A DNA stretch of 64,000 nt, taken from the NCBI GenBank assembly GCA_964465945.1, contig CAYXMM010000005.1, positions 30,703 to 94,702 on the forward strand, written 5' to 3'. The position numbers were made by a program, and so were the translations under genes. Below, one piece after another: positions 7,934 to 62,348 of this stretch. The number at the start of each line of letters is the position of its first letter. Positions within the stretch are counted from its first letter, which is position 1. This DNA is from an uncultured Hyphomicrobiales bacterium (GTDB taxonomy: Bacteria > Bacteroidota > Ignavibacteria > Kapaibacteriales > UBA2268). The notes beneath the pieces are model-generated. The model had not been told where the DNA came from and searched no databases. It saw only the letters and a program-made list of their open reading frames with translations.

Positions 7934-8005
7934 AATTAAAAATGGTCCCTTCGTCTAGCGGTTAGGACATCGCCCTTTCACGGCGGTAACACGGGTTCGA
8001 GTCCC
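7934..8005 (+). tRNA. tRNA-Glu (anticodon UUC); its 3' end is the prophage attachment site
   Basis: Cloverleaf folded by hand: acceptor ggtccct/agggatc (one G-U pair), D stem gtct/ggac, anticodon stem tcgcc/ggcgg with loop cTTTCAc (U33, anticodon TTC, A37), T arm acggg-ttcgagt-cccgt, discriminator A; no encoded CCA. Confidence 0.85.
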
Positions 8006-8010
8006 GTAGG
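7992..8010. repeat. attL core: 19-bp direct repeat tcccgtagggatcacttaa (tRNA-Glu 3' end)
   Basis: Identical 19-mer at 60220-60238; the left copy overlaps the tRNA T-arm/acceptor 3' half. Confidence 0.8.
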
Positions 8011-8014
8011 GATC

Positions 8015-8046
8015 ACTTAATAAGAAGCGAGTTATTTATTTAACTC
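8015..8046 (+). terminator. Intrinsic terminator supplied by the prophage just after the reconstituted tRNA-Glu end
   Basis: aagcgagtt-atttattt-aactcgctt followed by tttttt; an A-run precedes it on the other strand, so it could also end the leftward tape-measure operon. Confidence 0.5.
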
Positions 8047-19328: not shown

Positions 19329-19345
19329 TTTAACCTCTTATTTAG

Positions 19346-19418
19346 TGGCAGGGGCACGACTCGAACGTGCGACCTCTGGCTTATGAAACCAGCGAGCTAC
19401 CAACTGCTCTACCCCGCT
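19346..19418 (-). tRNA. Phage-encoded tRNA-Met (anticodon CAU) inside the tail gene run
   Basis: Reverse complement gives AGCGGGG-TA-GAGC-AGTTGGTA-GCTC-G-CTGGT-TTCATAA-GCCAG-AGGTC-GCACG-TTCGAGT-CGTGC-CCCTGCC-A: canonical D, anticodon (U33-CAT-A37) and T arms; 1-72 pair is an A-C mismatch; no encoded CCA. Confidence 0.65.
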
Positions 19419-27477: not shown

Positions 27478-28905
27478 ATGCAAGAAGAAGTAATTAGTTT
27501 AAGAAATAAGATTAAATCTATACCAGATGCTTTGTTAACTGAAATTGGGCTTAATCAAGAGCAACGCTCAAATTTTATTAATTATAAAATCTTTCCGATT
27601 GGACTGATTAAAAAAGCCCCTTGGAATTATAAAAATAATGATGATAAAATTTCTGAGAAATTGCGAAATAATATTAAACGAATTGGTCAAGTCGAAAACG
27701 TCCAAGTGCGAGAACTTGAAGATGGTTATTATGAAATGGTGAATGGTAATCACCGATTAGATGATATGATTGCCTTAGGCAAGGAGTTTATAGTGGCTTA
27801 CGACCACGGCGATATTTCTGAAACTGAAGCTAAACGAATTGCTATTGAGACTAATGAAACAAGATTTGAATCTGACGAAATGAAACTGTCTATTTTACTT
27901 AATGAACTTAAACTTGATTTCAATATAGATGACTTAAAAATTACATTACCTTATTCAGATTTTGAACTTAGAAATATTTCTAATTTTAGTTTGTCAAATA
28001 AAAACTTAGATATTAATTCAGTTGAAGAAGATGATTATTCAGAGGAATTAACTGAAAAACCAAAAACAAAAATTGGTGATTTATTTGAGTTAAACGGGCA
28101 TAGATTATTATGTGGCGATTCAACAAGTGATGATGATGTTGCAAGATTAATGAACGGTAAACTTGCCTCATTAACTCATACTGACCCACCTTATAATGTG
28201 AATTATGCTGAATTAAATCACAACGGGCGACCTCATCAAGGTAAGGATTGGGGTGAATCGTATTGCTCGGCTTGGCAGGACAGTATGAGCGATGATGATT
28301 ATGTACAATTCTTGATTACTTTTATAGGACTTGCTAAAAAATATTCAATCGAATATGCTAATTATTACATTTGGCACGCTACTAAATACTTCCCAGAATT
28401 ATTACATGCTCTGAAAGTTAATGAAATTTCGTTCGACCCAGTTCCGATTATCTGGAAGAAACAAGTCGCACCTTTAACTTTTGCACGTTACGCTCGAATT
28501 TATGAGCCGTGTGTATATGCGGGTAAGGATTCAACTGTTGCTTCTACTATTAATGGACGTTGGTTCGGTCCAGCAAATGAAAATAATGTCTGGGAGATAA
28601 GCAGAGACGGAAATAGGACTTATATTCATCCGACTCAAAAGCCAGTAGCTCTAGCTGCGAGGGCAATTAGAAATTCAAGTTTAATCGGTGAGATTGTGCT
28701 TGATTTATTTTTAGGCAGTGGAACTACCTTAATTGCATCAGACACTTTAGACAGGGTTTGTTTTGGAATGGAAATGGAGCCGAAGTTCTGTGATGGAATT
28801 GTGAAAAGGTTTATTAAATATTGCGAAGATAATAATAAAGAATGTCAAGTTAAACTCAATGGCGAGATTATAACAAAGGAATATTTCGAGGTTGAAAATG
28901 AATAA
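27478..28905 (+). CDS. ParB-like nuclease domain fused to a DNA N6-adenine/N4-cytosine methyltransferase (DPPY class)
   Basis: N-terminal EMVNGNHRLDDMIALG (ParB/Srx GxxR motif); central LTHTDPPYNV catalytic motif IV; FLGSGTT SAM motif near the C-terminus (permuted beta-class MTase). Confidence 0.75.
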   Translation: MQEEVISLRNKIKSIPDALLTEIGLNQEQRSNFINYKIFPIGLIKKAPWNYKNNDDKISEKLRNNIKRIGQVENVQVRELEDGYYEMVNGNHRLDDMIALGKEFIVAYDHGDISETEAKRIAIETNETRFESDEMKLSILLNELKLDFNIDDLKITLPYSDFELRNISNFSLSNKNLDINSVEEDDYSEELTEKPKTKIGDLFELNGHRLLCGDSTSDDDVARLMNGKLASLTHTDPPYNVNYAELNHNGRPHQGKDWGESYCSAWQDSMSDDDYVQFLITFIGLAKKYSIEYANYYIWHATKYFPELLHALKVNEISFDPVPIIWKKQVAPLTFARYARIYEPCVYAGKDSTVASTINGRWFGPANENNVWEISRDGNRTYIHPTQKPVALAARAIRNSSLIGEIVLDLFLGSGTTLIASDTLDRVCFGMEMEPKFCDGIVKRFIKYCEDNNKECQVKLNGEIITKEYFEVENE

Positions 28906-29440
28906 TGAAGATAAAGAATTGAACCCCTCTTGGTATCGGAGAGAAGATGAATCAGACCTTGCTTATGAACTATTTGAGACTTATCGGCTTTTACCTCCGT
29001 CGGATAGAACTTATGTAAATGTGGCAAGGAGACGCACGGACAAAGGTAATGATTATTCTACGATAATTCGGAAGCATGCTAAGCTATATAATTGGAATGA
29101 TAGGGTTCGAGATTGGGATAATCACCTTACCTTTTTAAAGGATAAGCAGATTACTGATTTGCTTGCAGAAGCTAAAATAGAACACCAAGAATTAGCAAGA
29201 GCAGTTAGAGTTTCATTATCAACTCCGTTGAAGTCGTTCGCAAAAAAAATTAACAACGGAGAGAATTTTGATTCAATGTCAATGAAAGAATTGTATAAAT
29301 TATTATTACAATTACCTGATAGATTGAAACGATTACAAGAGATAGAATTTACAGCACTCGGACATGCTACTGAAATTAAAAAACAAGATGTTACTTCAAA
29401 TGGGAATACAATCACTGTTAATTTAATTGATGACCTATGA
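28892..29440 (+). CDS. Terminase small subunit (putative)
   Basis: 182 aa immediately upstream of, and overlapping, the large terminase gene. Confidence 0.45.
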   Translation: MKMNNEDKELNPSWYRREDESDLAYELFETYRLLPPSDRTYVNVARRRTDKGNDYSTIIRKHAKLYNWNDRVRDWDNHLTFLKDKQITDLLAEAKIEHQELARAVRVSLSTPLKSFAKKINNGENFDSMSMKELYKLLLQLPDRLKRLQEIEFTALGHATEIKKQDVTSNGNTITVNLIDDL

Positions 29441-30759
29441 ACCCTAACGTAATAGACACTGTTAATATTCCCAAATCTGGATTTAACGATATTTATCTTC
29501 CACTTTTTGAGGATAATAACAGGACTTTTGTGTTATATGGTGGCAGGGGTTCGGCAAAGTCTGCATTTGCGGCGCAGTATATTATCACAGATTTGATGCA
29601 GAGACCTTATACTAAATGGATATGTATGAGGAAAATCTTCGCAGACATCAAAGACTCTCAATTCGCTACACTTAAATGGGTAATTAGTCATTGGAAATTG
29701 GAAGACTTATTTTATGTAACTCATTCGCCGATGGAGATTACTTGTGTCAAGAATGGCAATAAGATTATATTTAGAGGTTTAGACAAACCATATAAAACTA
29801 AATCAATACTTAATCCCACTTGTGTGTGGTTTGAAGAAGGGAATGAAATCGGATTTGATGAATATACTAAAACCACAACCTCGTTAAGAGGTCCTTCTGG
29901 CTCAAAGTTACGTGAAATAATCACGTTTAATCCAGAGCAAGAGGACGATTGGATTAATGAGTATTTCTTTCCACCGAAAGAGACTTATGAGAAAACTAAT
30001 GAGCCGTATAATTACATTAAAAGCATCAGAGATAATGCTACAATCTTGCATACTACATATAAAGATAACAAGTGGATAAAGGATGATGAGATTAATAAAC
30101 TTGAATCGTTAAAAGATATTGATGATAATTATTATAAGGTTTATACATTAGGTCATTGGGGTGGTGCATTAAAGGGACTGGTCTATACTAATTGGGATAC
30201 TTATGAAACAGAACCGAACGGGCAAGTAGTTTATGGGCTTGACTTTGGTTATAATGATCCTATGGCTTTGGTTAAAGTTACTCGGAAAGAGAATGATTTA
30301 TATGTCCGTGAAATGTTTTATAAGTCTGGCTGGACTACAAGTGAGTTTATTGAGGAGTTACCTAAATTAATTCACGATAAGTATACCGAGATTTATGCTG
30401 ACCACGAGCCAGATAGGATTGAAGAGATTTATAATAAGAATTACAATATTTATCCTGCGGATAAAGGTGCTAATTCAATTAAAAGCGGTATTGATTTTAT
30501 AAAGAGTTTCAAAATACATATTCATAAAGATTCGCATAATTTGATGAGAGAGTTAAAAAGGTATATTTATAAACAAGATAAAAATGGCAGGTCTCTTGAA
30601 TTGCCCGTCGACTTTGAAAATCACTCATTAGATGCTATGCGATATGCAATTAATACTCACGGACGTAAATATTGGCAAAATTCTGCAATAGTTTTGCCTT
30701 CGCTAACGAAAGATAGAAATAAAAGATTTAATAATAACTTTAAACAAGTAGGTTTTTAA
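29437..30759 (+). CDS. Terminase large subunit (PBSX/Terminase_6-like)
   Basis: 440 aa; Walker A VLYGGRGSAKS, C-terminal nuclease-like acidic residues, length typical of TerL. Confidence 0.8.
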   Translation: MNPNVIDTVNIPKSGFNDIYLPLFEDNNRTFVLYGGRGSAKSAFAAQYIITDLMQRPYTKWICMRKIFADIKDSQFATLKWVISHWKLEDLFYVTHSPMEITCVKNGNKIIFRGLDKPYKTKSILNPTCVWFEEGNEIGFDEYTKTTTSLRGPSGSKLREIITFNPEQEDDWINEYFFPPKETYEKTNEPYNYIKSIRDNATILHTTYKDNKWIKDDEINKLESLKDIDDNYYKVYTLGHWGGALKGLVYTNWDTYETEPNGQVVYGLDFGYNDPMALVKVTRKENDLYVREMFYKSGWTTSEFIEELPKLIHDKYTEIYADHEPDRIEEIYNKNYNIYPADKGANSIKSGIDFIKSFKIHIHKDSHNLMRELKRYIYKQDKNGRSLELPVDFENHSLDAMRYAINTHGRKYWQNSAIVLPSLTKDRNKRFNNNFKQVGF

Positions 30760-30760
30760 A

Positions 30761-33001
30761 ATGGAGAATCAAGATAAATTAATATTACCAAGAATTAAAC
30801 AACTCGGCAAGGAATATAAAATTAATTCAAATTCAGTTTCATACTGGAATAGTTTAATTGATAATCCAGACGCTCTTTTAAAACGAATTGGCAAGGATAT
30901 TCAAGTTTATGATGATATGCTTAACGATTCACATCTTTATGCTGTGGTTCAGTCTCGAAAGAGTGGGGTTTTATCGAAAGAATGGGAACTCGACCAGTAT
31001 GATAGTGAGCAGAGTATATATGATTTTGTTGAAGTTGTACTTAATAATTTAGATATTCATGATTGTATTAGAAGTATTTTAGATGCTCCACTATTTGGAT
31101 TTCAACCTATTGAGATTATTTGGGAAGTGATTGACGGGAAGTTAATTCCTGTGAAACTTAATAAACGTCCGAGACAATATTTTAAATTTGATATTGATAA
31201 TAATTTGGTTTTTATTGATGATAATGGCTCAACTGAAATTACTCCAAATGATAAATTTTTAATTCCTCGCTACGAAGCCAGCCGTGATAATCCTTACGGA
31301 ACTCCTTTGCTATCTAAATGTTACTGGTCGATTGTTCTAAAGAATGATGCCCGTAAGTCTTGGTCAGTGTTTATTGAGAAATTTGGTATGCCGTGGGTGA
31401 AAACACTTTATAAATCGCAGAGGTATCAATCTCAAAAAGATGTCGACGATTTACTTGATAGAATTTATAGTTATTCCGCAGATTCTATGTTCGCTTTGCC
31501 TGATGATGTTGAGTTGGATTTAATAAATGGGACTCAAACCTCTTCATCTGAAATTTACAATGCTTTTATTAATAAATGTATGGAAGATGTGAGTGAGGTA
31601 ATCTTAGGGCATACTTCGGCTACTACTTCGACGCCTGGTAAATTAGGGAATGAGAATATGGCTCAAAGTGTGGTAGATAGGATTATAGAGTCAGATATGA
31701 TTTTGGTTGAATCTACTTTTAATACTTTAATTAAAAAAATAGTGGATTTGAACTTTAATACTAATCAATATCCTTATTTTAGATTGGTCGAAGAGCAAGA
31801 TATAAACAAAGATAGAGCCGAGAGAGATGCTATTTTGTATTCAATGGGATTGCGATTCACAGAAGATTACTATGTGCGTGAGTTTAATTATTATAAAGGT
31901 GATTTCACTTTAAGTAATAGCGATAATTTAGGAGATTTAAGCCCAAAAAAGCTTATGAATCCGAGTAATTTTATTAATATATTGAACTCGGACGATAAGG
32001 ATAAGATTGGCGAGAAAGAGCAAGAAGTTACAGACAAATTCATAGAGCATTTATTAGACCCAGATAAGAATGAGACTTTATTTACGGATTTAATCAAGCC
32101 AATTATTGATTATGCTGGCAAAAATAAACTTGATGATTTGAAAAAAAACTATTATAAAGCTTATAGCAAGATAGATGCAAGTGATTTTATTGAAATAATC
32201 GAACGAGCAATTCTCATTATTCAAATTTACGGCTTAAACTCGGTCGATGAAGAAGAAGAAGAGCAAAAAGACAGGTTTAATTACTTCAACAAAGATGATA
32301 TTTCTTTGCAAGATTTAATTTTTGCTTTGGATAAAGAGCCAGAAGAAATTGTTGCTTATTTTAGGTCAAAAGGAGTGAAAATTTCTGATGACTGGCAGGA
32401 TACTTTTAAAATTATCAAACAACACGCATTCACTGTTGCTGGTGTTGTTAAAATGGACTTATTGGTTGACTTTAAGGAGATGATTGAGAAAGCAATCAAA
32501 GAGGGATTAAGTCAAGAGGAGTTTAAGAAGCAGTTAAAGGAGAGATTTAAAGAGAAAGGTTGGCTGAAAGACAAAGATAATAATAAACTCATCGAACCTT
32601 GGAGATTAGATACAATTTACAGAACTAATCTTCAAGACGCTTTTATGCAGGGGCGATGGAACGGACACACTTTAAATATTAAGAATGCACCTTATGTGAT
32701 GTGTAGTTCGGTGATGGATAACTCAACGACATCGGATTGCCGTGCTTTAGACGGGCAAGTCTTCAGAATTGATGACGATTATTTTGCAAAGAATCTGCGA
32801 CCGCCAGGGCATTATAATTGCAGACGGATTACGATTTCTTTGAGTGAAAATTTAGTAAAAAAACGTGGGTATAAGGTAAATAAAGGTATTGATTTTAAAA
32901 ATCATCGTAATCAGAAAGGATTTGATAACAAAGGTAATCCTTGGTTACCTAATAAATCTGATTACCCAAGTGAATTATGGAAAGAATTTGAGAAAAAATA
33001 A
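30761..33001 (+). CDS. Portal protein fused to a Mu F-like minor head/morphogenesis domain
   Basis: 746 aa following TerL; C-terminal …DCRALDGQVF…PPGHYNCRRIT matches the Mu F-like domain signature. Confidence 0.7.
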   Translation: MENQDKLILPRIKQLGKEYKINSNSVSYWNSLIDNPDALLKRIGKDIQVYDDMLNDSHLYAVVQSRKSGVLSKEWELDQYDSEQSIYDFVEVVLNNLDIHDCIRSILDAPLFGFQPIEIIWEVIDGKLIPVKLNKRPRQYFKFDIDNNLVFIDDNGSTEITPNDKFLIPRYEASRDNPYGTPLLSKCYWSIVLKNDARKSWSVFIEKFGMPWVKTLYKSQRYQSQKDVDDLLDRIYSYSADSMFALPDDVELDLINGTQTSSSEIYNAFINKCMEDVSEVILGHTSATTSTPGKLGNENMAQSVVDRIIESDMILVESTFNTLIKKIVDLNFNTNQYPYFRLVEEQDINKDRAERDAILYSMGLRFTEDYYVREFNYYKGDFTLSNSDNLGDLSPKKLMNPSNFINILNSDDKDKIGEKEQEVTDKFIEHLLDPDKNETLFTDLIKPIIDYAGKNKLDDLKKNYYKAYSKIDASDFIEIIERAILIIQIYGLNSVDEEEEEQKDRFNYFNKDDISLQDLIFALDKEPEEIVAYFRSKGVKISDDWQDTFKIIKQHAFTVAGVVKMDLLVDFKEMIEKAIKEGLSQEEFKKQLKERFKEKGWLKDKDNNKLIEPWRLDTIYRTNLQDAFMQGRWNGHTLNIKNAPYVMCSSVMDNSTTSDCRALDGQVFRIDDDYFAKNLRPPGHYNCRRITISLSENLVKKRGYKVNKGIDFKNHRNQKGFDNKGNPWLPNKSDYPSELWKEFEKK

Positions 33002-36636: not shown

Positions 36637-37566
36637 CTAAGCTGCCAACTCTCTTGTTCTGTTTTGAAAATAATTTATTAAATCGTTGTTTAAAAATCTT
36701 CTTAAGTTTACATCATCAGCATTTTCGATTTCTGTTCGTTTGGAAATCTCAATCAATCTTGCTAAAAATTTTATCCAGTTTGAAATTTTCTCAAAACTTA
36801 CTGAAGCCCCATGTTGTCTAAATTCTACTGAATTTTGTCTCCAAAATGATTGAGTATTTAATTTATAATATCTACTTTGATTTGTTATTAAACTTTCAAT
36901 CTCTCTTAAACTTATTGCATTGTCAATTTTTATTTTATAATTAGCTACTTTCATTGTGTGGCAGTAGCTGTTAGAATTTCCTCTTCTTGATTGTGGCATA
37001 AATCCATCAATCCAAGTTTCTAAGTTTGCATAATTTTTATATAAATTTTTCCAAGTTTCCAATTCAAAGTTCGAAGCATCAAAGTGAATATGAACTCCAC
37101 AAGATTTGTTTGTTTTTGCTTCTAAGCCCCTTGTGATTAAAAGTACTGTTTTAAGTTGTCTTAATCCATCTTCGCCTTGTAATTTTGGTGAAACAATTTC
37201 AAAAGAATTAGCACCTTGAAGTGAAGCGTCCCTTACAATTTTCCAATGGTCTCTTGTTTGGTGATTGTAGCCTTCGGCGTTTGTGTTAATTCCTGCGTTT
37301 CTTAGTTCAGTTTCTAATTCTTGCATTTTAATTCCAAAAGCTTCAATCTCAACTCCAAAAGTATGGTTGAATTGGAAGTTTGTTAATGAAGTGCTTATTC
37401 TTGTGTTAAGTTGTGCCTCAGCCCATTTTTTATGAACGTTGAAAGCAAATCCGTAATTTGTTCCAAGTAATTCAGCAACTTGATTTCTTGTCAATCCCAA
37501 ATCAAAAAGCAATCTCATTTTTGCTGTTTTGTTTAGCGTGCTGTTTATTATTTGTTCTTGTGTCAT
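36637..37566 (-). CDS. Putative amidoligase (Amidoligase_2 / glutamine-synthetase-like COOH-NH2 ligase family)
   Basis: 309 aa; N-terminal FGVEIEAFG motif and overall size fit the Amidoligase_2 family, which Pfam describes as occurring next to AIG2-type cyclotransferases. Confidence 0.55.
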   Translation of the reverse strand: MTQEQIINSTLNKTAKMRLLFDLGLTRNQVAELLGTNYGFAFNVHKKWAEAQLNTRISTSLTNFQFNHTFGVEIEAFGIKMQELETELRNAGINTNAEGYNHQTRDHWKIVRDASLQGANSFEIVSPKLQGEDGLRQLKTVLLITRGLEAKTNKSCGVHIHFDASNFELETWKNLYKNYANLETWIDGFMPQSRRGNSNSYCHTMKVANYKIKIDNAISLREIESLITNQSRYYKLNTQSFWRQNSVEFRQHGASVSFEKISNWIKFLARLIEISKRTEIENADDVNLRRFLNNDLINYFQNRTRELAA

Positions 37567-52293: not shown

Positions 52294-53274
52294 TTATTTA
52301 ATTAACAACACTCTTACTTGTGTCTGTTTTTCATACTTCACATACTCGTCTGGATTGTCTTCTTTGAATGCTTTTGAATCAAAAGAATTTCTATTTTGGA
52401 CCTTGTAAGTCGCTAAAATTAATTCGTCTTTAGTTTTAATTCCTTCTTTATCGTAGATAGCCATTTTTATTTTATCTTCCAAAAATGACTTGTTTTTATC
52501 AAGCTCTTTAATCCTGTCCTTAATTTCAGTCAATTGAGTATATGCTTCTAATAAATCATCATCTGCAACTGTAAAATCACCTACAACTTTATAATCTATA
52601 AATTTATTTAATTCCTCTGGGTTAGTTGGCGGTGGCATTACTCCTTTTGAAAGGTAGTGATCAACAAAATTATTTACCTTTTGCAGTGCAATTTCAATTA
52701 ATTTCTCGTTATACTCAATCGGATACCATTCAATATGACCACCGAATTTGAATTGGACTGTTGCAAAATATGCCTTTCTAAATCCAGTTACATACATATA
52801 CCATTGAACTTGCATATAATAATGTGGATTAGTCTTAATAAACTCTTCTTTGGATTTAAAAAAATTATTAGTAACTAATTTACACTCAACGATTGCTGGT
52901 GAGCCGTCATAGTCGATTGTGAAGTAATCCAAAGAGCCGTGCGCCACTCCACGCTTTAAGATTGTAACTTTTTCACCTTGAAAATCTACATCAACAAATC
53001 GAACTTCATCATCTTCAATCATAGCTCTTAATTCTTTAGTGCTTTCGGCTGGTGAGAATACAGGCAAAGAGGTTGCTTGTGAAAATAATTTAGCAATAGC
53101 GGGCTCAAATGCTTTACCTAATCTCATTGCATCATTTTCTTCAACTTTATATCCGTTAACTTTTTCATTATAAACATCAAATTGAGTTTTATAAGGATTA
53201 ACTCCGCAGATAGCAGCTACATCTGTTCCTCCGATTGATTTTTTACGCTCAGAGATAAAGGTTGCGGTACTCAT
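52294..53274 (-). CDS. YqaJ-type viral recombinase exonuclease (lambda-Exo fold)
   Basis: 326 aa; N-terminal SIGGTDVAAICGVNPYKTQFDVY matches the YqaJ signature. Confidence 0.65.
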   Translation of the reverse strand: MSTATFISERKKSIGGTDVAAICGVNPYKTQFDVYNEKVNGYKVEENDAMRLGKAFEPAIAKLFSQATSLPVFSPAESTKELRAMIEDDEVRFVDVDFQGEKVTILKRGVAHGSLDYFTIDYDGSPAIVECKLVTNNFFKSKEEFIKTNPHYYMQVQWYMYVTGFRKAYFATVQFKFGGHIEWYPIEYNEKLIEIALQKVNNFVDHYLSKGVMPPPTNPEELNKFIDYKVVGDFTVADDDLLEAYTQLTEIKDRIKELDKNKSFLEDKIKMAIYDKEGIKTKDELILATYKVQNRNSFDSKAFKEDNPDEYVKYEKQTQVRVLLIK

Positions 53275-54203
53275 ACTTTAGCATCCTCATTTATCATATT
53301 TAAAATGTTATTATTGTCAGCTGCTTGGATTTCACCTGTTTCAATATCTACATTATAGTCGTCTTCATATTCAGTGTCTCTTTGATACTCTTCAATAGTA
53401 AATTCTTTGACTGGCTCTGTAAGTTCTCTTCTTATTACTTGCGATTCAGGTAGTAATAGTCTTTGTTTATCTTCAGTCGATAAAGGTAGATAAGTAGCTA
53501 AAGCTCTAACCGCTTTCCCTTTTGCCATTTCAGCATAATGCGTATCCCAGATTCCAGATGGTGTTTCACCACTTTTTTGAGTTTTAGATAATTTCCGTCT
53601 TTTCTCAATCTGATTTTTAGTTAGAACAGCAAAAGTAAAAGAACCGTCTTTAAATCTTGCCACAGCATAAGAGTATTTTAAACTTTTATGGTCGTCATTT
53701 AAAAAAGCAGGTTTGTGTTTAAGGGAACGATTTAAACCGTATTCTATCTCAAATTCATCACCTTCATAAACAACTTCAGCATAAATATCAGCGATACTAT
53801 TAGACCTTCTTGCCAATTCTAAATAACCTTTATAGCCAATTTGGAATTGAACTTCTTTTTGACCTTTTATAAAATATGGCACATAATAACAATGCCCTAA
53901 TGCTGGTGCTGGCTCTAATCCAAGAATAGCCGTTTGTTGCAATGCTCCAAATATCGATTGCAAAGAACATTCTTTAAGCTCTGGGTTTTTTTCAAATATA
54001 GTCGCAACCATCGTAACGAATCTATCTGAACTCATTGTATCCGTAAATGACTTTTTCAAAGTGTTAGTCATTCCTGAAACTACTTCTGAGATTTGAGTTG
54101 ATTTAAACCCTTTTAATGAGTTTTGCTTACTTGCGATTCCCATAGCAGACATCTTTTTTTGTTCCATTTGTATAGCACTATTTGTTTTTGCTAATTCAGA
54201 CAT
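53271..54203 (-). CDS. RecT-family single-strand annealing protein
   Basis: 310 aa; …HCYYVPYFIKGQKEVQFQIGYKGYLELARRS… and W..HY.EMAKGKAVRAL segments resemble RecT; translationally coupled to the YqaJ exonuclease. Confidence 0.55.
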   Translation of the reverse strand: MSELAKTNSAIQMEQKKMSAMGIASKQNSLKGFKSTQISEVVSGMTNTLKKSFTDTMSSDRFVTMVATIFEKNPELKECSLQSIFGALQQTAILGLEPAPALGHCYYVPYFIKGQKEVQFQIGYKGYLELARRSNSIADIYAEVVYEGDEFEIEYGLNRSLKHKPAFLNDDHKSLKYSYAVARFKDGSFTFAVLTKNQIEKRRKLSKTQKSGETPSGIWDTHYAEMAKGKAVRALATYLPLSTEDKQRLLLPESQVIRRELTEPVKEFTIEEYQRDTEYEDDYNVDIETGEIQAADNNNILNMINEDAKV

Positions 54204-54985: not shown

Positions 54986-55025
54986 TACAAATCTCCTTTA
55001 TAATTTTGTAAAAAATAATATGTTT

Positions 55026-55067
55026 CTGGTGGCTTCTATTTTAGAATGATGAGCCACCAGTTTTTTT
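55026..55067 (+). terminator. Stem-loop (ctggtggct … agccaccag) followed by TTTTTTT between cro-like gene and downstream early genes
   Basis: 9-bp perfect stem, 17-nt loop, 7 T on the plus strand; on the minus strand the stem is preceded by the A-run and followed by a distal U-rich stretch. Confidence 0.4.
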
Positions 55068-55284
55068 ATGCAAATTCTTTAAGACTATCTAAAATTTGAT
55101 TAGCTCTATCCGCAAGTTCTTTCTCTTTTAATAATTTTTCTTTTTCAACCTTTACTACCATTCTGATAACATTCAAATCATTATTGTTTACTTTATGATT
55201 TAAGACTTGTCTTGTTATACCAAGTCTTTTCGCTGCTTCAGTCCTGGTACCTCTCGAAAATTTTCTTTTTTTTACATCAGCCAT
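55066..55284 (-). CDS. Cro-like small HTH regulator
   Basis: 72 aa; AAKRLGITRQVLNHKVNN HTH; transcribed divergently from the CI-like gene. Confidence 0.5.
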   Translation of the reverse strand: MADVKKRKFSRGTRTEAAKRLGITRQVLNHKVNNNDLNVIRMVVKVEKEKLLKEKELADRANQILDSLKEFA

Positions 55285-55337
55285 TTGATTTAATCCTAAT
55301 TATTCCTTAAATTGCAATTGTTTTTATTTTCTTTATA

Positions 55338-55467
55338 TTTTCGTTTCGTTTTCGTTTCGTTTTACAAAGTTTTATTATTGTAGAACTATTCCGATAATAC
55401 AAGAAGGTAAATATAAATATATTTTCGTTTCGTTTTCGTTTCTAAAACAAAATTAGGAAACGTTTCC
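55338..55467. promoter_or_regulatory. Operator/promoter region of the CI-Cro switch with repeated GAAACG/CGTTTC half-sites
   Basis: ttttcgtttcgttttcgtttcgtttt (55338-55363), ttttcgtttcgttttcgtttc (55422-55442) and perfect palindrome GGAAACGTTTCC (55456-55467). Confidence 0.5.
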
Positions 55468-55515
55468 GAAACTTCCAAATTATATTTTTAATTTTCTTAA
55501 ATTATTTTTGGTATA

Positions 55516-56256
55516 TTGTATAAACCTTCTATTAACAATAGGTTGAAAGTGAAAAAAAATTTCATACAAGAGCAATTAAGAGAAAATCTTAGATACATTT
55601 TTAAAAAAACTTCTGCGTCAATGAACAAAATGCATGAAAATAAAGTTGTTTCTAAAGGGTATATGTCGAAATATTTAAAAGATGAGAATATGTTTTTAAG
55701 TAGTGATAAAATTGAGAGCATATCTAATTATTTAGGTATTCAAATAAATGACTTAATTAATAAAGATTTATCGAAATCTGCCGACCCACTTAATATAAGT
55801 AATAATACAATTCCTATAGAATTAAAAAAACAAAAACCAGAAATCCAATTCATCGAACAAAAAAACGGGCAAGTAACAGAAATTCCATTATATGAAAGCA
55901 CCGTATCGGCTGGAATTCCGAAAGAGATATTTGATTATCCACCAATGAAGATAGCAGTAGCACCAATTAAACAAGGTGCGTTTGCAGTGAAAGTTAGTGG
56001 TGATTCGATGATAGATTTTAAAATTGATGATGGTGACACATTGGTGGTATTCCCTACGACTGAATTAAAATTCAATCAATTAGTAGTAGCAAAATGTGGA
56101 GATGCTTACACTGTTAAAAAATTAGAAAAGAGAGATGATGATTATTTGTTAGTGCCTGGCAATAAAAAGTATGAGCCAGTAATAATAGATGATACAGACA
56201 AGTTTGAAATAATCGGCTATGTGCTTTATATTATGAAAAAGCCGTTTTTAAGTTAA
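55516..56256 (+). CDS. CI-like repressor: N-terminal XRE HTH plus C-terminal S24 (LexA-like) autopeptidase
   Basis: 246 aa; VKVSGDSMID (Ser nucleophile) and VVAKCGDAYTVKKL (Lys) of S24; N-terminal HTH. Confidence 0.7.
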   Translation: MYKPSINNRLKVKKNFIQEQLRENLRYIFKKTSASMNKMHENKVVSKGYMSKYLKDENMFLSSDKIESISNYLGIQINDLINKDLSKSADPLNISNNTIPIELKKQKPEIQFIEQKNGQVTEIPLYESTVSAGIPKEIFDYPPMKIAVAPIKQGAFAVKVSGDSMIDFKIDDGDTLVVFPTTELKFNQLVVAKCGDAYTVKKLEKRDDDYLLVPGNKKYEPVIIDDTDKFEIIGYVLYIMKKPFLS

Positions 56257-56312
56257 TTGTTGTAAATTGCATTTTTAGAAAGAAAATTAGTTTTATTATA
56301 TAAAGGTGTTTT

Positions 56313-56615
56313 ATGAAAAAATTAATAGTATTAGTCTGTTTGTCATTCATTTTTGCTTTGTCTCAGGAAAAAGAAATAAATTATAATTCAGGAACATTTA
56401 CAAAAATGTCAAACGAATCGATAAATGATTCTTTAAATGTAGAGAAAGATTCTTTAGAAATTAAAACAGCGAAGAAAAAGATAAAACAAAAGGCAGAAGA
56501 TGAATATTATACTGGACAATGTCAAGGATTACCAAAAAAGGTAAACAATGTAAAAGAAATGCTTCAGGTGGAACTCGGTACTGCTATCAACACGGAGGAA
56601 AATAATGAGGAATAA
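56313..56615 (+). CDS. Small secreted protein (signal peptide)
   Basis: 100 aa; MKKLIVLVCLSFIFALSQE signal peptide. Confidence 0.35.
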   Translation: MKKLIVLVCLSFIFALSQEKEINYNSGTFTKMSNESINDSLNVEKDSLEIKTAKKKIKQKAEDEYYTGQCQGLPKKVNNVKEMLQVELGTAINTEENNEE

Positions 56616-57153
56616 CATTATTACAATATTAACTATAATATTTATAGTTTCCCTAAATAATATATTGTTTTCACAGGAAATACCTATTTCATGCTCTAAA
56701 TCATTGGTCAAGGTTGAAGATGGAGGAGATATATACTTTAGGACTTTCAAAGATTTAAAAATAGAAAGCATCTACAAAAAGAAAAAACATAATATTAATT
56801 TTAGTATTGTTCAATTCGAACAAGCAATGAGTTTATTCTTTAAATTTGAAAAAAATATTTGTTTTGATGTTGGAAGCCGTTTAGTAATTACTCTTCGTGA
56901 TAGTAGTGAAATTACTGTGATATCAAGAATGAAAGAAAAAAATTGTGAAGGACAATTATATTATACTTTGTCACATGTTAGTGATGTTGAATCTATCAAA
57001 AAAATTAACGAAAAAAGTATTGAGTCTTTAAAAATTTATAATAAAAAGGATAAAATAACATTAGATATTAGCGAATATGAACTTGCAAATATATCACAGA
57101 ATATATATTGTTTAGCAAAAATATTTAACCAAACTTTCTGGAATCAAGATTGA
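56605..57153 (+). CDS. Secreted protein (signal peptide); candidate partner or inhibitor of the adjacent nuclease
   Basis: 182 aa; N-terminal ILTIIFIVSLNNILFSQE signal peptide; overlaps upstream gene by 11 nt. Confidence 0.35.
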   Translation: MRNNIITILTIIFIVSLNNILFSQEIPISCSKSLVKVEDGGDIYFRTFKDLKIESIYKKKKHNINFSIVQFEQAMSLFFKFEKNICFDVGSRLVITLRDSSEITVISRMKEKNCEGQLYYTLSHVSDVESIKKINEKSIESLKIYNKKDKITLDISEYELANISQNIYCLAKIFNQTFWNQD

Positions 57154-57243
57154 AAAGGTGTAAGATGAATTTAGTAATAAACAATATTAGAGATTTTATT
57201 CAAACTCCACAGAATATATTTAATCATTAAATTTTGTAATAAT

Positions 57244-58029
57244 ATGCGAAAAACATTAATAATATTGTTAATTTCTTTAACATTTATTTCCTGCTCTGAA
57301 AGCAACACAACAGAGCCAGAAGATAAACAAACTACTTATTCCTATTTAGAACTTCCAGACACAACACTCGGTCAAATAGTCCACCATCATAATTATACTT
57401 TATCTTATGCTGAGGAATACGAACAAGCATATTGGGTGGCTTATGAATTAGTATCAACAGAACTTGTTAAGAATTACGAACGAACAGACGATTTTATTAT
57501 AGACCCTGCCGTAATAACTGGCAGTGCAGAAGCAAGCGACTACAAAGGAAGCGGTTACGATAGGGGTCATTTAATGCCAGCAGCAGTATGCACTTGGGAT
57601 TCTACTGCAATGGCTGAAAGTTTCTTTTACTCAAATGTATCCCCTCAAAATGCTTCGTTTAATCGTGGTGTTTGGTCTCGACTCGAAGATTTAGAAAGAG
57701 AACTTGTTACTAAATATGATACAGTTTGGGTGGTAGTAACTCCGATATTTAATAATGTAACAAAATATATAGGTGCAAACGGGGTAGCAGTTCCAAGCGA
57801 TTACGGACGTGCCTTTTTAGTCAATGATAACGGAGTTTATAAAGGAATTGCATTTATACTTAGTAACGAAGCCAAGTCGTCCGACTACGATATAATCGAA
57901 AATGCTTCATATACAATAGACGCATTAGAAAAAAGAATTGGTATTGATTTATTCTTTCAACTTGACAATCAAATTGAAGATATTTTAGAAAGTAAAATCA
58001 GTAAAGAGATGTTTGAGGGGATTAAGTGA
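57244..58029 (+). CDS. Secreted lipoprotein DNA/RNA non-specific endonuclease (Endonuclease_NS, DRGH motif)
   Basis: 261 aa; lipobox LTFISC; SGYDRGHLMPAA active-site motif of Serratia/NucA-type nucleases. Confidence 0.75.
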   Translation: MRKTLIILLISLTFISCSESNTTEPEDKQTTYSYLELPDTTLGQIVHHHNYTLSYAEEYEQAYWVAYELVSTELVKNYERTDDFIIDPAVITGSAEASDYKGSGYDRGHLMPAAVCTWDSTAMAESFFYSNVSPQNASFNRGVWSRLEDLERELVTKYDTVWVVVTPIFNNVTKYIGANGVAVPSDYGRAFLVNDNGVYKGIAFILSNEAKSSDYDIIENASYTIDALEKRIGIDLFFQLDNQIEDILESKISKEMFEGIK

Positions 58030-58219
58030 ATAACAAATATATGAATCTTTAAAAAATTATGGTGAAACACCCGATACTAATAAACAAAGATTAAAAAATT
58101 ATTTATTTTTCCAAATATTTTAGAATATTTATTGAAATTATTCTATTCTTAATTCCATATAAAAATTACAATTTTCATTATACAAATACTGACGGAGTAA
58201 TTGAATATTATAAAAGTAT

Positions 58220-58294
58220 CGTCCTTTATTCACTCCGCACTTAAACGAATAGGTAAAGGACGAGATTAGGCACGCTATTTTAAAGGGACTGGGT
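58220..58294 (+). pseudogene. Degraded 3' fragment of a MuG-like virion morphogenesis gene (homologous to 33361-33435)
   Basis: ~75 bp aligning with the end of ORF 33001-33438 (38-bp core 35/38 identical); translates RPLFTPHLNE* versus RPLFTSLLNEETKDEIKHAILKGLV*. Confidence 0.4.
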
Positions 58295-58911
58295 GAGAGA
58301 GATTTATATCTTCCTTTTTATTCAAAGAAGTGTTTAAATATTTCATATCTTTGAATGATTGCGGATAATATTATATTTATTATAATGCTTAAAGATAAAA
58401 TTAAAGTAGCAAATTTGATTTTATTAAAAACTACCTTTTTCCGTTCTTCCCAATGTATATAATTTTTATTTATTAGAAAAAGTATAATACTAATAAAAAT
58501 TATTAATATAACTGATATTGTAAAAAAGCCACTAATAGTATTATTACCTTTAGTTTGTGTGATAAATGCAGTGAGAATAGCAATTAATGCTGTGAAAACT
58601 GTTACAATTTCTATTGTCTTATTCTCAAATTTATTTATTTTTGCATCAAGGTTTTCTTTAATATTATTCTTTTCTTTTTCTAAATAATATTTACTTTTAA
58701 ACTCATTTATTTTCCTTTTATATCCTTTTGATTTTAATTTTTCAATTTCAAAACTTACTGGAATAAAAATCTTAATTACGTGTGTAAATCCAAGAATGGT
58801 TTATATTTTTGAAGAAATGTAAATTATTTAAATATTTTTAAAAAAAACTTTAAACGTGCTTGTAAGTCGTTTATAATATAGAAAAAAATTTTATTTTTTT
58901 AAGAAAAAAAA

Positions 58912-60084
58912 TTATTCCAAAGCACTCCTTACAGCATTTACTGCTTCACTTTGAGTAATTTTAACATATTCATCGAATGAACGTCTATTACGATGACCTG
59001 TTATTTTCATAATTTGTTCTGGAAGTAATCCTTTACGGAGTAATCTTGTTATAAAAGTTCGACGTGCTGTGTGGCTGGATATTAATTCATACTTTGGTTT
59101 AATTGTATCAACTCTTTTGCCACCTCTCCAAGAAGTTACGAGTGTAGGAGCATCTATTCCAGCAAGTTTACAGACTTCTTTAATATATTGATTGTATTTA
59201 ACATCAGAAATTACTGGCAATACATTCTGATATTTATCAAATATCGTTAAAATTGATGAAGAAATAGGTATTCTAATTATTTCTGCAGTTTTTATTGTTA
59301 TTGTATGTAGCTCTTTACGTTTAATATTGATATTTTCAGGTTTTAAATTTAGTAAGTCAGATATTCGTAGTCCAGTATAACATTGAATTAAAAATAAATC
59401 TTTTACTTTTTGTAGTCGATGGTTTAATTCAACGTTTTTAATCTCCGTAATTTCGTCTTCATCTAAAGCAATTAATGTAGAATAATAATTATTTAACTCA
59501 ACTTTAAAAGAGTTTAAATAGTTAATATTATAGTTAGGATTTTGTCTCGAATATTCTCTTATTATTGTTTTAAATCTCTTCATTATTCTAACGATGTAAG
59601 AATTACTATACTCATTTCGCATTAGATATTCTTTAAAATCAATTAATACGTTAAGATTTATATTGTTGAAATCAAGATTAGGATTAAATTTATATATTAA
59701 ATTGCTAAAAACCGAATATGTAACTTGTGTCTTCTCATTTGCATATTTTGACTTATACTTGTTAATAAAATCAATAACTTTCGAATTAGAACTCTTCTTG
59801 GAGTTATAATTGCAAATAATATCTTCAATAGATGTAATATTAAAATTATTATAATTATTTATTATTAAATACTCTTGAATTAGTTCTGACAAATTCTTTA
59901 TTTTTGTATTTAAGAGAAAAGAATTCTTATCTATTGATTTTACAATTTGTTTTTTTGCGTCCCAATTTTTAGATTTAACAGAAATATTTGTCGTTATTCT
60001 GTATCTATGATTTAGATGTCGTAAGTCAAGATAAATTCTACTTGTTTCTTTTGTCCTATCTTTTAAATATAATCTGAATTTCAT
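58912..60084 (-). CDS. Tyrosine site-specific integrase
   Basis: 390 aa; C-terminal catalytic domain with …R… HTARRTF … GHRNRRSFDEYVKI (R-H-R-Y pattern); adjacent to attR. Confidence 0.85.
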   Translation of the reverse strand: MKFRLYLKDRTKETSRIYLDLRHLNHRYRITTNISVKSKNWDAKKQIVKSIDKNSFLLNTKIKNLSELIQEYLIINNYNNFNITSIEDIICNYNSKKSSNSKVIDFINKYKSKYANEKTQVTYSVFSNLIYKFNPNLDFNNINLNVLIDFKEYLMRNEYSNSYIVRIMKRFKTIIREYSRQNPNYNINYLNSFKVELNNYYSTLIALDEDEITEIKNVELNHRLQKVKDLFLIQCYTGLRISDLLNLKPENINIKRKELHTITIKTAEIIRIPISSSILTIFDKYQNVLPVISDVKYNQYIKEVCKLAGIDAPTLVTSWRGGKRVDTIKPKYELISSHTARRTFITRLLRKGLLPEQIMKITGHRNRRSFDEYVKITQSEAVNAVRSALE

Positions 60085-60219
60085 AAGTGCCTTTTTTAGT
60101 GTCTTTATAAAGCAAAATTATGTATTATTCAAATTACATACAAATATAAAATAAAGATATAATTATGTTATATTGCTAATAAATGCGTTTTAAATATAAT
60201 TCAAATATAAATATTGTAA

Positions 60220-60238
60220 TCCCGTAGGGATCACTTAA
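60220..60238. repeat. attR core: second copy of tcccgtagggatcacttaa
   Basis: Identical to 7992-8010. Confidence 0.8.
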
Positions 60239-60241
60239 ATC

Positions 60242-60273
60242 AAGCCACAAATAATATATTGTGGCTTTTTTTA
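60242..60273 (+). terminator. Intrinsic terminator immediately after attR (probably the original tRNA-Glu terminator displaced by integration)
   Basis: aagccacaa-ataatatat-ttgtggctt followed by TTTTTTT. Confidence 0.5.
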
Positions 60274-60956
60274 TTTCCACACTGACAAAATCACGGACAA
60301 AATTAGCATAATGTGTTGATTTTTGCAAATTCAATTAACTTTAATAAGATAACCTAAACGCAGATTTAAACCCTATTTTCTATTGAGGGAAGTGTCCGTT
60401 AGGGCGATGGGTGATTTTTTACTCGTCATATTGAGCACAACAAAGACCTTCAATCAAAAAAATTCCCCTCTACCAGGGGGGGGTCGGCTTGCCGACGGGG
60501 TGTTTTGTATTAAAAATACTTCGTAGAAGTATAATATTAATAGAAAAATAAATACAAAAGTTAAACTGCTCCGTAGTAGTAGTATAAAAAAAAATCATCT
60601 TCGGAAGGTTCCAAACACTTCCAAAGGTTTAGAATGACAACGTTTAAAATGAAAAAATTTCTTGCAGACGAAAACGACAATATTTTTACGCATATCTTGT
60701 AATTATTAAATATATAAAATAATTACACGAGTTCAAAAAAAATCCAAAATTGCCAGAATCTGCAAGAATCATACAATAACACATCAAAACTCAGATTTTA
60801 TAAATAAAATAAAAGTAGTTGAATTGAATAGAGTATCAACAAACAATAATTTTGTAAAAATAAAAGTTCTTTGAAATATAAAGTAAGCACAAAAAAAAAG
60901 TCCACCTAAACAACATTAAGTGAACTTTTAAAAATAGGATATATTAAAACTAAAAA

Positions 60957-62348
60957 TTAACTGACTAGTTGTCCAAAAAGAGTTCCTGAAGTTGAACGAT
61001 CAATTTTAACTTTAACAATATCGCCAACTTTAATCAAGTCATTATGAGGGAAAATTGCCACTTTGTTAGTGTCTGTTCTACCTTGCCATTCGTTAGACTT
61101 CTTCTTACTTTCGCCTTCAACTAAAACTTCGTGAACTCTACCAATTTCAGTTAAATTAATTTCACCGGAAATCATTTGCTGCTGGTCGATTATTTCTTGT
61201 AATCTGCGGGTTTTAACTTCTTCTGGAACGTCATCTTCAAATTTTTCAGCAAGCGTATTTTCTCTTACAGAATACTTAAACATATAAGCACCATCATAGC
61301 GAACTTCTCTCATTAAAGATAAAGTTTCTTGATGGTCTTCTTCTGTTTCAGTGCAGAATCCAGAGATAATATCAGTTGAAAGTGCAATATCAGGAATCGC
61401 AGAACGAATTGCTTCGATTCTTTTTAAATATTCTTCACGATTGTAATCTCTTCGCATTTTTTTAAGAACAGCCGAAGAGCCAGATTGAACAGGTAAATGA
61501 ATATAATTACATATATTTGCATAAGTTGCGTGTGCTTCAATTAAGCCATCACTCATATCGTGAGGGTGAGATGTAGTATATCGGATTCTCATATTCGGAA
61601 CAGCTTTTGCGCATTCAGTAAGTAATTTAGGGAAATCTTGAGATGCATCTTTGTCAAAGTATGAATTAACATTTTGACCTAAAAGTGTTACTTCTTTAAT
61701 TCCACTATCATAAAGTTTTTTAACTTCATCTACAACCGATTTTAAGGTTCTTGAGCGTTCACGCCCTCTTGTGTATGGAACAACACAAAAAGCACAGAAA
61801 TTATTACATCCGCGCATAATTGAAATCCAAGCAGAAATGCCTTGAGTTCTTAGTGGAGTTATATCTTCATAAGTCTCAACTTTACTAAGTTTTACGGCTA
61901 TTCCTTGTTCTCCATCAAAAGCGTTAGAAACAAGAGCTGGTATGCTTCTATATTCATCAGGACCAACAACTAAGCTAACAAGATCGCGTTCGCCAATTAG
62001 TTTGCCTTTCATTCGTTCAGCCATACAGCCAAGAATACCGACAACTAATTTATTATGTTTTCTTCTTTTTAAGCCCCTAAGTTGCGATAATCTATTGAAA
62101 ATTTTCTTTTCTGCATTATCGCGAACTGAGCAAGTATTCAATAAAATTACATTTGATTCATTAATATTTTCAGTTAAGAAATAGCCCGCATCTGACATTA
62201 TTGAAGCAACAATTTCAGAATCAGCCACATTCATTTGGCAACCATAAGTTTCAATATATACTCCAAGTGCATTTGGGTTCTTAGTAGTGCTAGTGTTTGA
62301 TTTTTTAGGGGCAGTAATATCAATATACATTATATCAATTTCTTTCAA
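60957..62348 (-). CDS. miaB: tRNA-i6A37 methylthiotransferase MiaB (radical SAM MTTase)
   Basis: 463 aa; N-terminal MTTase domain, CNNFCAFC radical-SAM cysteine motif, C-terminal TRAM domain. Confidence 0.85.
   Translation of the reverse strand: MKEIDIMYIDITAPKKSNTSTTKNPNALGVYIETYGCQMNVADSEIVASIMSDAGYFLTENINESNVILLNTCSVRDNAEKKIFNRLSQLRGLKRRKHNKLVVGILGCMAERMKGKLIGERDLVSLVVGPDEYRSIPALVSNAFDGEQGIAVKLSKVETYEDITPLRTQGISAWISIMRGCNNFCAFCVVPYTRGRERSRTLKSVVDEVKKLYDSGIKEVTLLGQNVNSYFDKDASQDFPKLLTECAKAVPNMRIRYTTSHPHDMSDGLIEAHATYANICNYIHLPVQSGSSAVLKKMRRDYNREEYLKRIEAIRSAIPDIALSTDIISGFCTETEEDHQETLSLMREVRYDGAYMFKYSVRENTLAEKFEDDVPEEVKTRRLQEIIDQQQMISGEINLTEIGRVHEVLVEGESKKKSNEWQGRTDTNKVAIFPHNDLIKVGDIVKVKIDRSTSGTLFGQLVS

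Follow-up and report, generated by a model that had tools for sequence, protein, structure and literature searches.

The 64,000-nucleotide (nt) stretch of contig CAYXMM010000005.1 analyzed here (the window) is AT-rich, with an overall GC content of ~30%, and contains a tailed prophage of ~52 kb bounded by two attachment-site copies (attL, 8002-8020, and attR, 60220-60238). Near the right end of the prophage, directly downstream of a cI-type repressor gene and on the same strand, lie three open reading frames (ORFs), two small ones (ORF1 and ORF2) and a nuclease gene, which a sequence-only reading had singled out as lysogenic cargo. All three are present at the coordinates that the reading gave. 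The repressor, its divergent neighbor, and the three-gene cassette are as follows.

55066..55284, minus strand: small cro/cII-like helix-turn-helix (HTH) protein, divergent from cI (weak HTH matches and position)
55549..56256, plus strand: cI-type repressor, HTH and S24 autopeptidase (Peptidase_S24, PHROG 4)
56313..56615, plus strand: ORF1, frameshifted allele of a 97-aa predicted secreted zinc-ribbon protein of the DUF5763 type (intact allele in relative L006)
56528..56605, plus strand: out-of-frame remnant of the DUF5763 motif, ITKKGKQCKRNASGGTRYCYQHGGK and then a stop codon that overlaps the ORF2 start (TAATG)
56605..57153, plus strand: ORF2, predicted secreted 182-aa four-cysteine protein (phmmer relatives, alignment, and AlphaFold2 [AF2] model)
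57244..58029, plus strand: predicted lipoprotein nuclease of the Endonuclease_NS family, 261 aa (Pfam, PHROG, and PDB sequence matches; lipobox)
57292-57294, within the nuclease gene: lipobox Cys17
57661-57663, within the nuclease gene: N140
57685-57687, within the nuclease gene: E148

Judged by its sequence, the product of 57244-58029 is a genuine Endonuclease_NS enzyme of the Serratia/NucA/EndoG type, with the catalytic residues D106-R107-G108-H109, R80, N140, and E148 intact. It matches Pfam Endonuclease_NS with 146.5 bits (cut-off 23; E=1.2e-42) over profile positions 17-219 of 223, PHROG 14168 ('nuclease') at 2.8e-34, and the PDB sequences of EXOG, Serratia nuclease, EndoG, and Anabaena NucA at 5e-21 to 2e-18. 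The motif SGYDRGHLMPAA is present, with DRGH at residues 106-109 (nt 57559-57570), and in an alignment with the Serratia enzyme R57, R87, H89, N119, and E127 fall opposite R80, R107, H109, N140, and E148, respectively; the Serratia reference sequence used for this has the 245-aa length of 1g8t and carries R, R, H, N, and E at the numbered residues. The same five positions are invariant across an alignment of 19 sequences of the clade, and because the catalytic residues are both intact and invariant the nuclease looks enzymatically active. The sequence-only reading had made its assignment depend on the catalytic His and Asn of Endonuclease_NS, and all of these residues are in place.

The N-terminus of the nuclease, MRKTLIILLISLTFISC, satisfies a PROSITE-type lipobox rule (a basic N-terminus, a hydrophobic core, and [LIVMFWSTAG]2-[LIVMFYSTAGCQ]-[AGS]-C with the Cys within residues 15-35), with Cys17 as the predicted lipidation site, whereas neither ORF1 nor ORF2 fits the rule; 16 of the 19 clade members retain the lipobox Cys. 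Together, profile and lipobox bear out the exported, lipid-anchored DRGH nuclease of the sequence-only reading, and we hold both the identity of the enzyme and its export with high confidence. Surface exposure is possible. The export signal of Bacteroidota surface lipoproteins is a polar or basic residue followed by at least two acidic residues at positions +2 to +6, as in K-(D/E)2, SDDDD, or SDDFE (PMC5080379). The window copy reads C-S-E-S-N-T-T-E-P-E-D from the lipobox Cys onward, with one acidic residue only in +2 to +6, and homologues with CSDDN, CNEEN, CEEGN, CEDSP, or CSEDK fit this signal more closely.

The nearest nonphage nucleases are 53 to 67% identical and chromosomal (L002 and L003), with the L003 gene directly 3' of two TonB-dependent receptor genes; another homologue (65% identity; L173) adjoins an integrase. 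In IMG/VR, single-protein queries with the nuclease or cI returned no close relatives, but an alignment-based scan found at least 126 stretches encoding relatives of the nuclease. Of 80 such Endonuclease_NS ORFs from the viral contigs of IMG/VR, 51 have, by a heuristic call, N-termini that resemble signal peptides. A PADLOC search gave no defense-family match for any of the cassette proteins.

How the cassette relates to the repressor is best considered together with the lysogeny switch itself. The repressor gene begins at a TTG at 55516 in the longest ORF and at a GTG at 55549 in the gene call of the identical contig L005. Its product matches Peptidase_S24 (9.2e-23) and PHROG 4, 'transcriptional repressor' (1.9e-30), and HTH_26 only weakly and below threshold (19.1 bits; cut-off, 22). 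The protein encoded at 55066..55284 has sub-threshold matches to HTH_8 (21.6 bits against a cut-off of 22), HTH_3, and Phage_CP76, and is called cro/cII-like mainly from its position opposite cI. Between the two genes lie identical copies of a 25-nt direct repeat, TATATTTTCGTTTCGTTTTCGTTTC, at 55334-55358 and 55418-55442, and a 12-nt palindrome, GGAAACGTTTCC, at 55456-55467, which are candidate operators. A Bacteroidota-type -7 box, TATTTTTG, at 55503-55510 is a putative promoter element upstream of cI.

From the end of the repressor gene at 56256 there are 56 nt to ORF1 on the same strand, ORF1 and ORF2 overlap, and 90 nt separate ORF2 from the nuclease gene. Crude consensus scans of the plus strand predict no terminator-like site between 56257 and 58900, and neither ORF1 nor the nuclease gene is directly preceded by a Bacteroidota-type -7 box; the only other such box ahead of the nuclease gene is inside ORF2, ~400 nt upstream. 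In relative L174, a related cI gene overlaps an ORF2-like gene by 14 nt. The shared strand, the short gaps, the lack of a predicted terminator or of a -7 box of its own, and the L174 overlap lead us to favor an operon with cI. The arrangement would fit the pattern of lambda cI-rexAB, in which rexAB is placed with the repressor gene and expressed in the lysogen, rather than that of a self-contained moron. Coexpression of the cassette with cI is thus, on this indirect evidence, moderately well supported.

The sequence-only reading had spoken of a moron. In the sense of Hendrix, a moron brings its own signals and composition, yet the same crude scans found neither a promoter nor a terminator flanking the cassette genes, and their base composition is not distinct from that of the surrounding phage genes; GC content at third codon positions (GC3) is 0.248 for the nuclease gene, 0.237 for cI, and 0.248 for the YqaJ homologue. 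Strict moron status is thus unsupported. We also considered recent horizontal import on compositional grounds and rejected it, since the raised GC content of the nuclease gene (35%) is not seen at third codon positions. What stands of the earlier proposal is prophage cargo directly downstream of cI and co-oriented with it, with no terminator-like site between them and with a precedent in the repressor-nucA layout of the Campylobacter prophage CJIE4 (see below).

The two small proteins were assessed with heuristics for a basic N-terminus, core hydropathy, and a small-X-small site. By these heuristics, each begins with basic residues, followed by a hydrophobic core of 12 residues (mean hydropathy, 3.0 to 3.2) and a small-X-small site, with predicted cleavage at ALS|QE in ORF1 and LFS|QE in ORF2. 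We note that a Gln follows the predicted signal-peptidase I sites in ORF1, ORF2, and homologues including that of L007 (ALS|QE, LFS|QE, ANS|QE, and MLS|QE; window positions 56313-56380 and 56605-56685). This matches the Bacteroidetes 'Q-rule' (PMC5837995), though the host is nearer to Ignavibacteria/Kapaibacteria. The claim that two small exported proteins precede the nuclease holds for the signal-peptide-like N-termini of both, but not for ORF1 as an intact gene.

ORF1 in the window has its signal peptide and linker in frame and its C-terminus out of frame, with one A absent at 56528/56529 relative to an otherwise identical intact allele in L006. Four otherwise identical copies are found in public assemblies (the window, L005, L006, and L001): L005 has the same 1-nt deletion as the window, and L001 has a different one, lacking a G just past the signal peptide. 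A sequencing error was considered as the cause of the frameshift and rejected, because the same deletion is present in L005, an independent assembly seen in four samples. The intact 97-aa L006 protein has a signal peptide, a Lys/Glu-rich linker, and a C-terminal motif, QCQGITKKGKQCKRNASGGTRYCYQH, and its gene ends in a TAATG overlap with the ORF2 start. In L007, a 98-aa ORF1-like protein differs in signal peptide and linker and is identical in the C-terminal motif. Because the frameshift inactivates ORF1 in the window, the intact protein would appear to be dispensable. We note a -1 slippery heptamer, A_AAA_AAG, in phase at 56534-56540 of the frameshifted ORF1 (run CCA AAA AAG); slippage by -1 at this site would bring the DUF5763 motif back into frame, giving ...CQGLPKKGKQC... 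in place of ...CQGITKKGKQC..., and leaky rescue of ORF1 in this way is conceivable.

The C-terminal motif of the intact alleles is in register with nuclease-fused copies of DUF5763 (C-x-G-x-T-K-x-G-x-x-C-x10-C-[YFH]-x-H). Among the 120 top-ranking homologues of the nuclease, at least 22 carry one or two copies of this module at their C-terminus; another subset of homologues has ComEA-like helix-hairpin-helix (HhH) repeats there instead. A custom hidden Markov model (HMM) was built from 27 DUF5763 copies taken from the C-termini of nuclease homologues. Among the six-frame peptides of the window its sole match is the out-of-frame remnant (56528-56593; E=4e-7), and the intact alleles of L006 and L007 match at ~1e-8 (best quoted, 8e-9). 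Against Pfam DUF5763 (PF19067) an intact ORF1 allele scores 13.1 bits, below the gathering score of 26.3; nuclease-fused copies in P0019, P0050, and P0029 pass, and that in P0021 reaches only 17.2 bits. A stand-alone protein with a signal peptide and DUF5763 (P0131) comes from an unrelated, apparently GC-rich organism. A full-text literature search found no paper mentioning DUF5763. These comparisons suggest that ORF1 would supply in trans a module that otherwise extends exported nucleases in cis. The module is probably a nucleic-acid- or nuclease-binding accessory, and plausibly a nucleic-acid-binding tail where it is part of a nuclease.

ORF2 has no Pfam match, its single PDB sequence match is at chance level (E=0.51), a word-indexed protein search returned identical copies only, and none was found in GTDB representative genomes. 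Run exhaustively against 1.8 billion representatives, phmmer recovered just six remote relatives, with 21 to 39% identity. C30, C86, and C114 are invariant in the family, the fourth Cys is conserved wherever its region is present, and most relatives have a clearly hydrophobic, signal-peptide-like N-terminus. Because the relatives share these N-termini and the invariant cysteines, ORF2 is, as far as sequence conservation can tell, a member of a real, rare extracytoplasmic protein family. The AF2 model from the seven-sequence alignment (pLDDT, 86.8; pTM, 0.77) consists largely of beta strands and ends in a long helix, whereas the single-sequence model was unusable (pLDDT, 37). Foldseek gave no match of the model in the PDB at E<=0.001, and the match in BFVD is an unnamed 149-aa viral protein (E=9e-6; TM score, 0.44 to 0.52). 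The suggestion that one of the small proteins is a NuiA-like inhibitor or chaperone finds no footing in either: ORF1 is the frameshift-disrupted form of a zinc-ribbon protein of the DUF5763 type, and ORF2 has no match to NuiA or another immunity family below E=0.1, with NuiA also absent among the fold-search matches listed. ORF2 could be an accessory DNA binder, a superinfection exclusion (Sie)-type protein, or an inhibitor.

The cassette recurs, with variations, in related phages. Besides L005, which is 100% identical to the window, and L006, whose cassette is identical too apart from the additional A of its intact ORF1, the mosaic relative L001 has an integrase 99.5%, a nuclease 97.5%, and an ORF2 100% identical to those of the window, with cI and RecT at 67% and 68%. 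Its homology with the window stops at the nuclease stop codon, and the segment that follows is swapped for ~7 kb of other cargo. This nuclease-integrase interval of L001 (10780-18000) encodes a PAPS reductase (PAPS_reduct)/DUF3440 protein, a SpoU-like methylase, an SNF2-family helicase, and DUF7448, and may be a DNA-modification or defense island in the same cargo slot. In L007 the first two genes are swapped, so that the 3' end of cI is followed by an ORF2-like gene (39% identity), an intact ORF1-like gene, and a lipoprotein nuclease gene. In L008 an internal deletion has reduced the nuclease gene to its last ~60 codons (1854-2039), directly after an ORF2-like gene; all relatives with a cI C-terminus like that of the window nonetheless carry an ORF2-type gene. 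The relatives of the window also carry YopX. Sequence comparison thus indicates that the three genes form an accessory block that is conserved in this group of phages yet prone to decay. Beyond the group, the unrelated Bacteroidota phage contig L091 has an S24 repressor gene followed by genes for exported proteins, a lipoprotein nuclease with two fused DUF5763 copies, and an integrase, and in L133 an S24 match directly precedes the nuclease frame and shares its strand. These two are the only finds of narrow custom S24/integrase HMMs, from which no frequency of repressor linkage can be derived.

The closest known parallel is in Campylobacter jejuni, where the CJIE4 NucA (CJE1441) and the CJIE2 nuclease (CJE0566) are likewise exported DRGH Endonuclease_NS enzymes encoded on a prophage, directly downstream of an S24 repressor gene and co-oriented with it. 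In CJIE4-3 a phage repressor protein gene is followed, with a 4-nt overlap, by nucA, which encodes a signal-peptide Endonuclease_NS protein with SGYDRGH, and in CJIE4 the divergent early genes also include YopX. The CJIE4 nuclease has been detected in lysogens by proteomics (PMC3995785), and earlier genetics showed that the CJIE2 and CJIE4 nucleases abolish natural transformation (PMC3995785; review, PMC12378983). The likeness has limits: CJIE4 NucA is ~37% identical to the window nuclease over just 99 residues (38% of the query), its N-terminus has no lipobox, a small hypothetical PLDc_N protein follows it in place of any ORF1- or ORF2-like partner, and the host is of a different phylum. More broadly, the window nuclease resembles the exported, transformation-blocking DNases borne on mobile genetic elements (CJIE1 Dns, CJIE2/4 NucA, and IdeA/SxnA) in being predicted to be exported and in being encoded on an integrated element.

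Other systems share parts of the picture. The catalytic domain, with all active-site residues conserved, is that of Serratia marcescens nuclease, Anabaena NucA, EndoG, and EXOG (PF01223), but these enzymes are chromosomal or mitochondrial, and among them only Anabaena NucA has an inhibitor, NuiA, for which no counterpart was found in the window. Bacteroidota chromosomal Endonuclease_NS proteins with a C-terminal DUF5763 or ComEA-like HhH are 44 to 50% identical in the catalytic domain and share the N-terminal export signal; their DUF5763 is in cis, in one or two copies, whereas in the window it is in trans and frameshifted. As for placement, lambda rexAB and the Ltp/Sie-type genes are also accessory genes beside the repressor, but with no sequence or fold relationship to the cassette and with a different biochemical activity. 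What is found here thus belongs to a known kind, the exported nuclease of a prophage, with a lipid anchor, two conserved exported partners, and DUF5763 in trans as its differences.

From these observations we propose that in the lysogen cI and the cassette are transcribed together. The nuclease would leave the cytoplasm through Sec, receive its lipid at Cys17, and so become anchored in the envelope, possibly at the cell surface. There, as its catalytic residues predict, it would act as a Mg2+-dependent, sugar-nonspecific beta-beta-alpha-metal nuclease and degrade extracellular or periplasmic DNA and RNA. By analogy with CJIE4 NucA, destruction of incoming or ambient DNA may block DNA uptake and so prevent recombinational curing of the prophage, with nucleotide scavenging as a nonexclusive extra benefit. 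Intact ORF1 would be a secreted stand-alone DUF5763 accessory, and ORF2 a secreted disulfide-type protein that travels with cI. We consider this reading as a whole, a repressor-linked envelope nuclease cassette transcribed with cI and destroying DNA, to be somewhat better than an even bet. Whether the biological benefit is a block to DNA uptake and curing, nucleotide scavenging, or both is uncertain.

Several points weigh against it. Promoter-like sites occur in the window at background frequency (39 consensus matches against 41 expected). The cassette decays readily, with two independent ORF1 frameshifts and the nuclease deletion in L008, so any benefit would be conditional. The linkage of ORF2 to the nuclease could reflect the common ancestry of these phages rather than a joint function. 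The window copy (CSESNTTEPED) has only a weak acidic lipoprotein export signal, and surface and periplasmic locations both fit. A transformation-blocking benefit, if the Campylobacter analogy is followed, would presuppose a naturally competent host. A bolder version is doubtful: that the three genes might form one extracytoplasmic module capturing and destroying DNA, with DUF5763 as an exported nucleic-acid-binding zinc ribbon in cis or trans and ORF2 as a new disulfide-stabilized, Whirly-like nucleic-acid-binding fold, placed in the immunity operon of an FCB-group prophage against curing or competing DNA.

The same biochemistry could bring a different benefit, namely nutrient scavenging, in which a surface nuclease frees nucleotides and phosphate from environmental DNA and RNA. 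That the nearest nonphage homologues are chromosomal and of a housekeeping type, with the L003 copy after two TonB-dependent receptor genes, speaks for this, as does GC3 equal to that of the neighbors, in keeping with recruitment of the gene from the pool of host genes; yet the cassette has no transporter or phosphatase partner, and it is the transformation-blocking role that has a precedent for placement in a phage immunity operon, so that scavenging as the main benefit has a minority share of our confidence, though the largest among the alternatives. Slightly less probable is that the genes are unrelated lysogenic-conversion functions, with ORF2 (and perhaps ORF1) mediating superinfection exclusion from the cI-int slot and the nuclease as separate cargo. 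ORF2-family genes directly follow cI in L007 and L174, L008 keeps its ORF2-like gene despite the nuclease deletion, and the ORF2 relative P0125 is on an inovirus-like contig without a nuclease; Ltp/Sie-type accessory genes sit in the lysogeny module of streptococcal and lactococcal phages, and exported Sie lipoproteins from there are established (PMC3952083). The cassette itself speaks against exclusion: comparison with PADLOC and PHROG turned up no similar exclusion protein, the ORF1 motif is specifically a nuclease-appended module, and in L007 the order is shuffled and yet all three genes stay together.

If ORF2 were instead a periplasmic inhibitor, silencing the nuclease until it reaches its destination, its tight linkage to the nuclease in three diverged lineages would follow, and its survival in L008 would be that of an orphan immunity gene. 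The searches described above gave no immunity-family or NuiA match, however; the periplasm holds no genomic DNA to protect, and the signal of the nuclease is of the ordinary Sec/lipoprotein sort, with no domain for toxin delivery. To our knowledge, Serratia-type secreted nucleases need no inhibitor, which also counts against such a role, and we regard it as improbable. Least probable of all, to the point that we would be surprised by it, is a DNase for virulence and evasion of neutrophil extracellular traps (NETs), like Sda1 and Spd1, or one that acts at lysis to free virions from viscous DNA. Spd1 and Sda1 are, like the window nuclease, prophage-borne secreted beta-beta-alpha-metal nonspecific nucleases, but they come from a monoderm pathogen, are freely secreted, and serve in NET evasion. 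Their genes sit at that end of the prophage where lysis genes and attachment site are, and phage induction turns them on as well. Such DNases of Streptococcus pyogenes prophages are classic lysogenic-conversion and virulence cargo (PMC3258162). The virulence or NET role that the sequence-only reading had entertained is unlikely in a host related to environmental Ignavibacteria, Kapaibacteria, and Chlorobiota (see below). The orientation with cI, opposite the early lytic genes, speaks against action at lysis, and the lipid anchor argues against a freely diffusing enzyme.

On the reading that we prefer, that of a repressor-linked envelope nuclease, a layout experimentally characterized only in Campylobacter would extend to prophages of the Bacteroidota/Ignavibacteria/Chlorobiota group. 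This would point to a strategy that temperate phages have used repeatedly, with relevance for the way in which mobile elements and natural transformation come into conflict. The cassette also offers a first contextual clue to DUF5763, which appears to be an exported module accompanying Endonuclease_NS in cis or in trans, and ORF2 defines a very small, new family of predicted secreted proteins encoded after cI in these phages. As an enzyme the nuclease is unremarkable, and no major concept is changed.

The prophage (30.9% GC; host flanks, 30 to 32%) is framed by a tRNA gene and its duplicated 3' end, and its other main features are listed here.

7944-8016: tRNA-Glu (ARAGORN), its 3' end being the attL core
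8002..8020, plus strand: attL core, TCCCGTAGGGATCACTTAA, an exact 19-nt repeat with 60220-60238 that overlaps the 3' end of tRNA-Glu
26130-27314: head protease (PHROG match)
29437-30759: large terminase (PHROG match)
30761-33001: portal (PHROG match)
52294-54203: RecT and YqaJ homologues
58912..60084, minus strand: tyrosine integrase (Arm-DNA-bind_5, SAM_5, and Phage_integrase), adjoining the right attachment-site copy
60220..60238, plus strand: attR core, which duplicates the 3' end of tRNA-Glu and is the second copy of TCCCGTAGGGATCACTTAA

PHROG matches also identify a DnaB-type helicase and a replication initiator among the prophage proteins. The host MiaB, encoded just outside attR, is 66 to 73% identical to proteins of Chlorobiota, Ignavibacteria, and Kapaibacterium metagenome-assembled genomes; because these are its nearest relatives, we place the host as an environmental diderm of the FCB group and not as a member of the classical Bacteroidia.

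In the variable slot between the nuclease and integrase genes, an open frame of ~160 codons (58347..58826, minus strand) lies in a stretch of 21% GC and has three predicted transmembrane segments. It has no ATG, GTG, or TTG start, and the chance of such a stop-free run is, by a rough estimate, ~1e-7. Its Pfam 8xMP match is weak and under the cut-off (1.4e-4), and a tblastn search of phages gave no match; it may be a 5'-truncated gene or one with an unusual start codon. On the host side, the intergenic segment between attR and miaB at 60383-60530 is GC-rich and hairpin-rich, with two terminator-like stems; it has no Rfam match at E<=0.1, and an Rfam scan of 55000-61000 gave no match. Elsewhere in the prophage, a tRNA-Met (CAT) lies amid structural and tail genes at 19345-19418 (minus strand), and PHROG matches point to a ParB-domain DNA methyltransferase (27478-28905) and an amidoligase-like protein (36637-37566).

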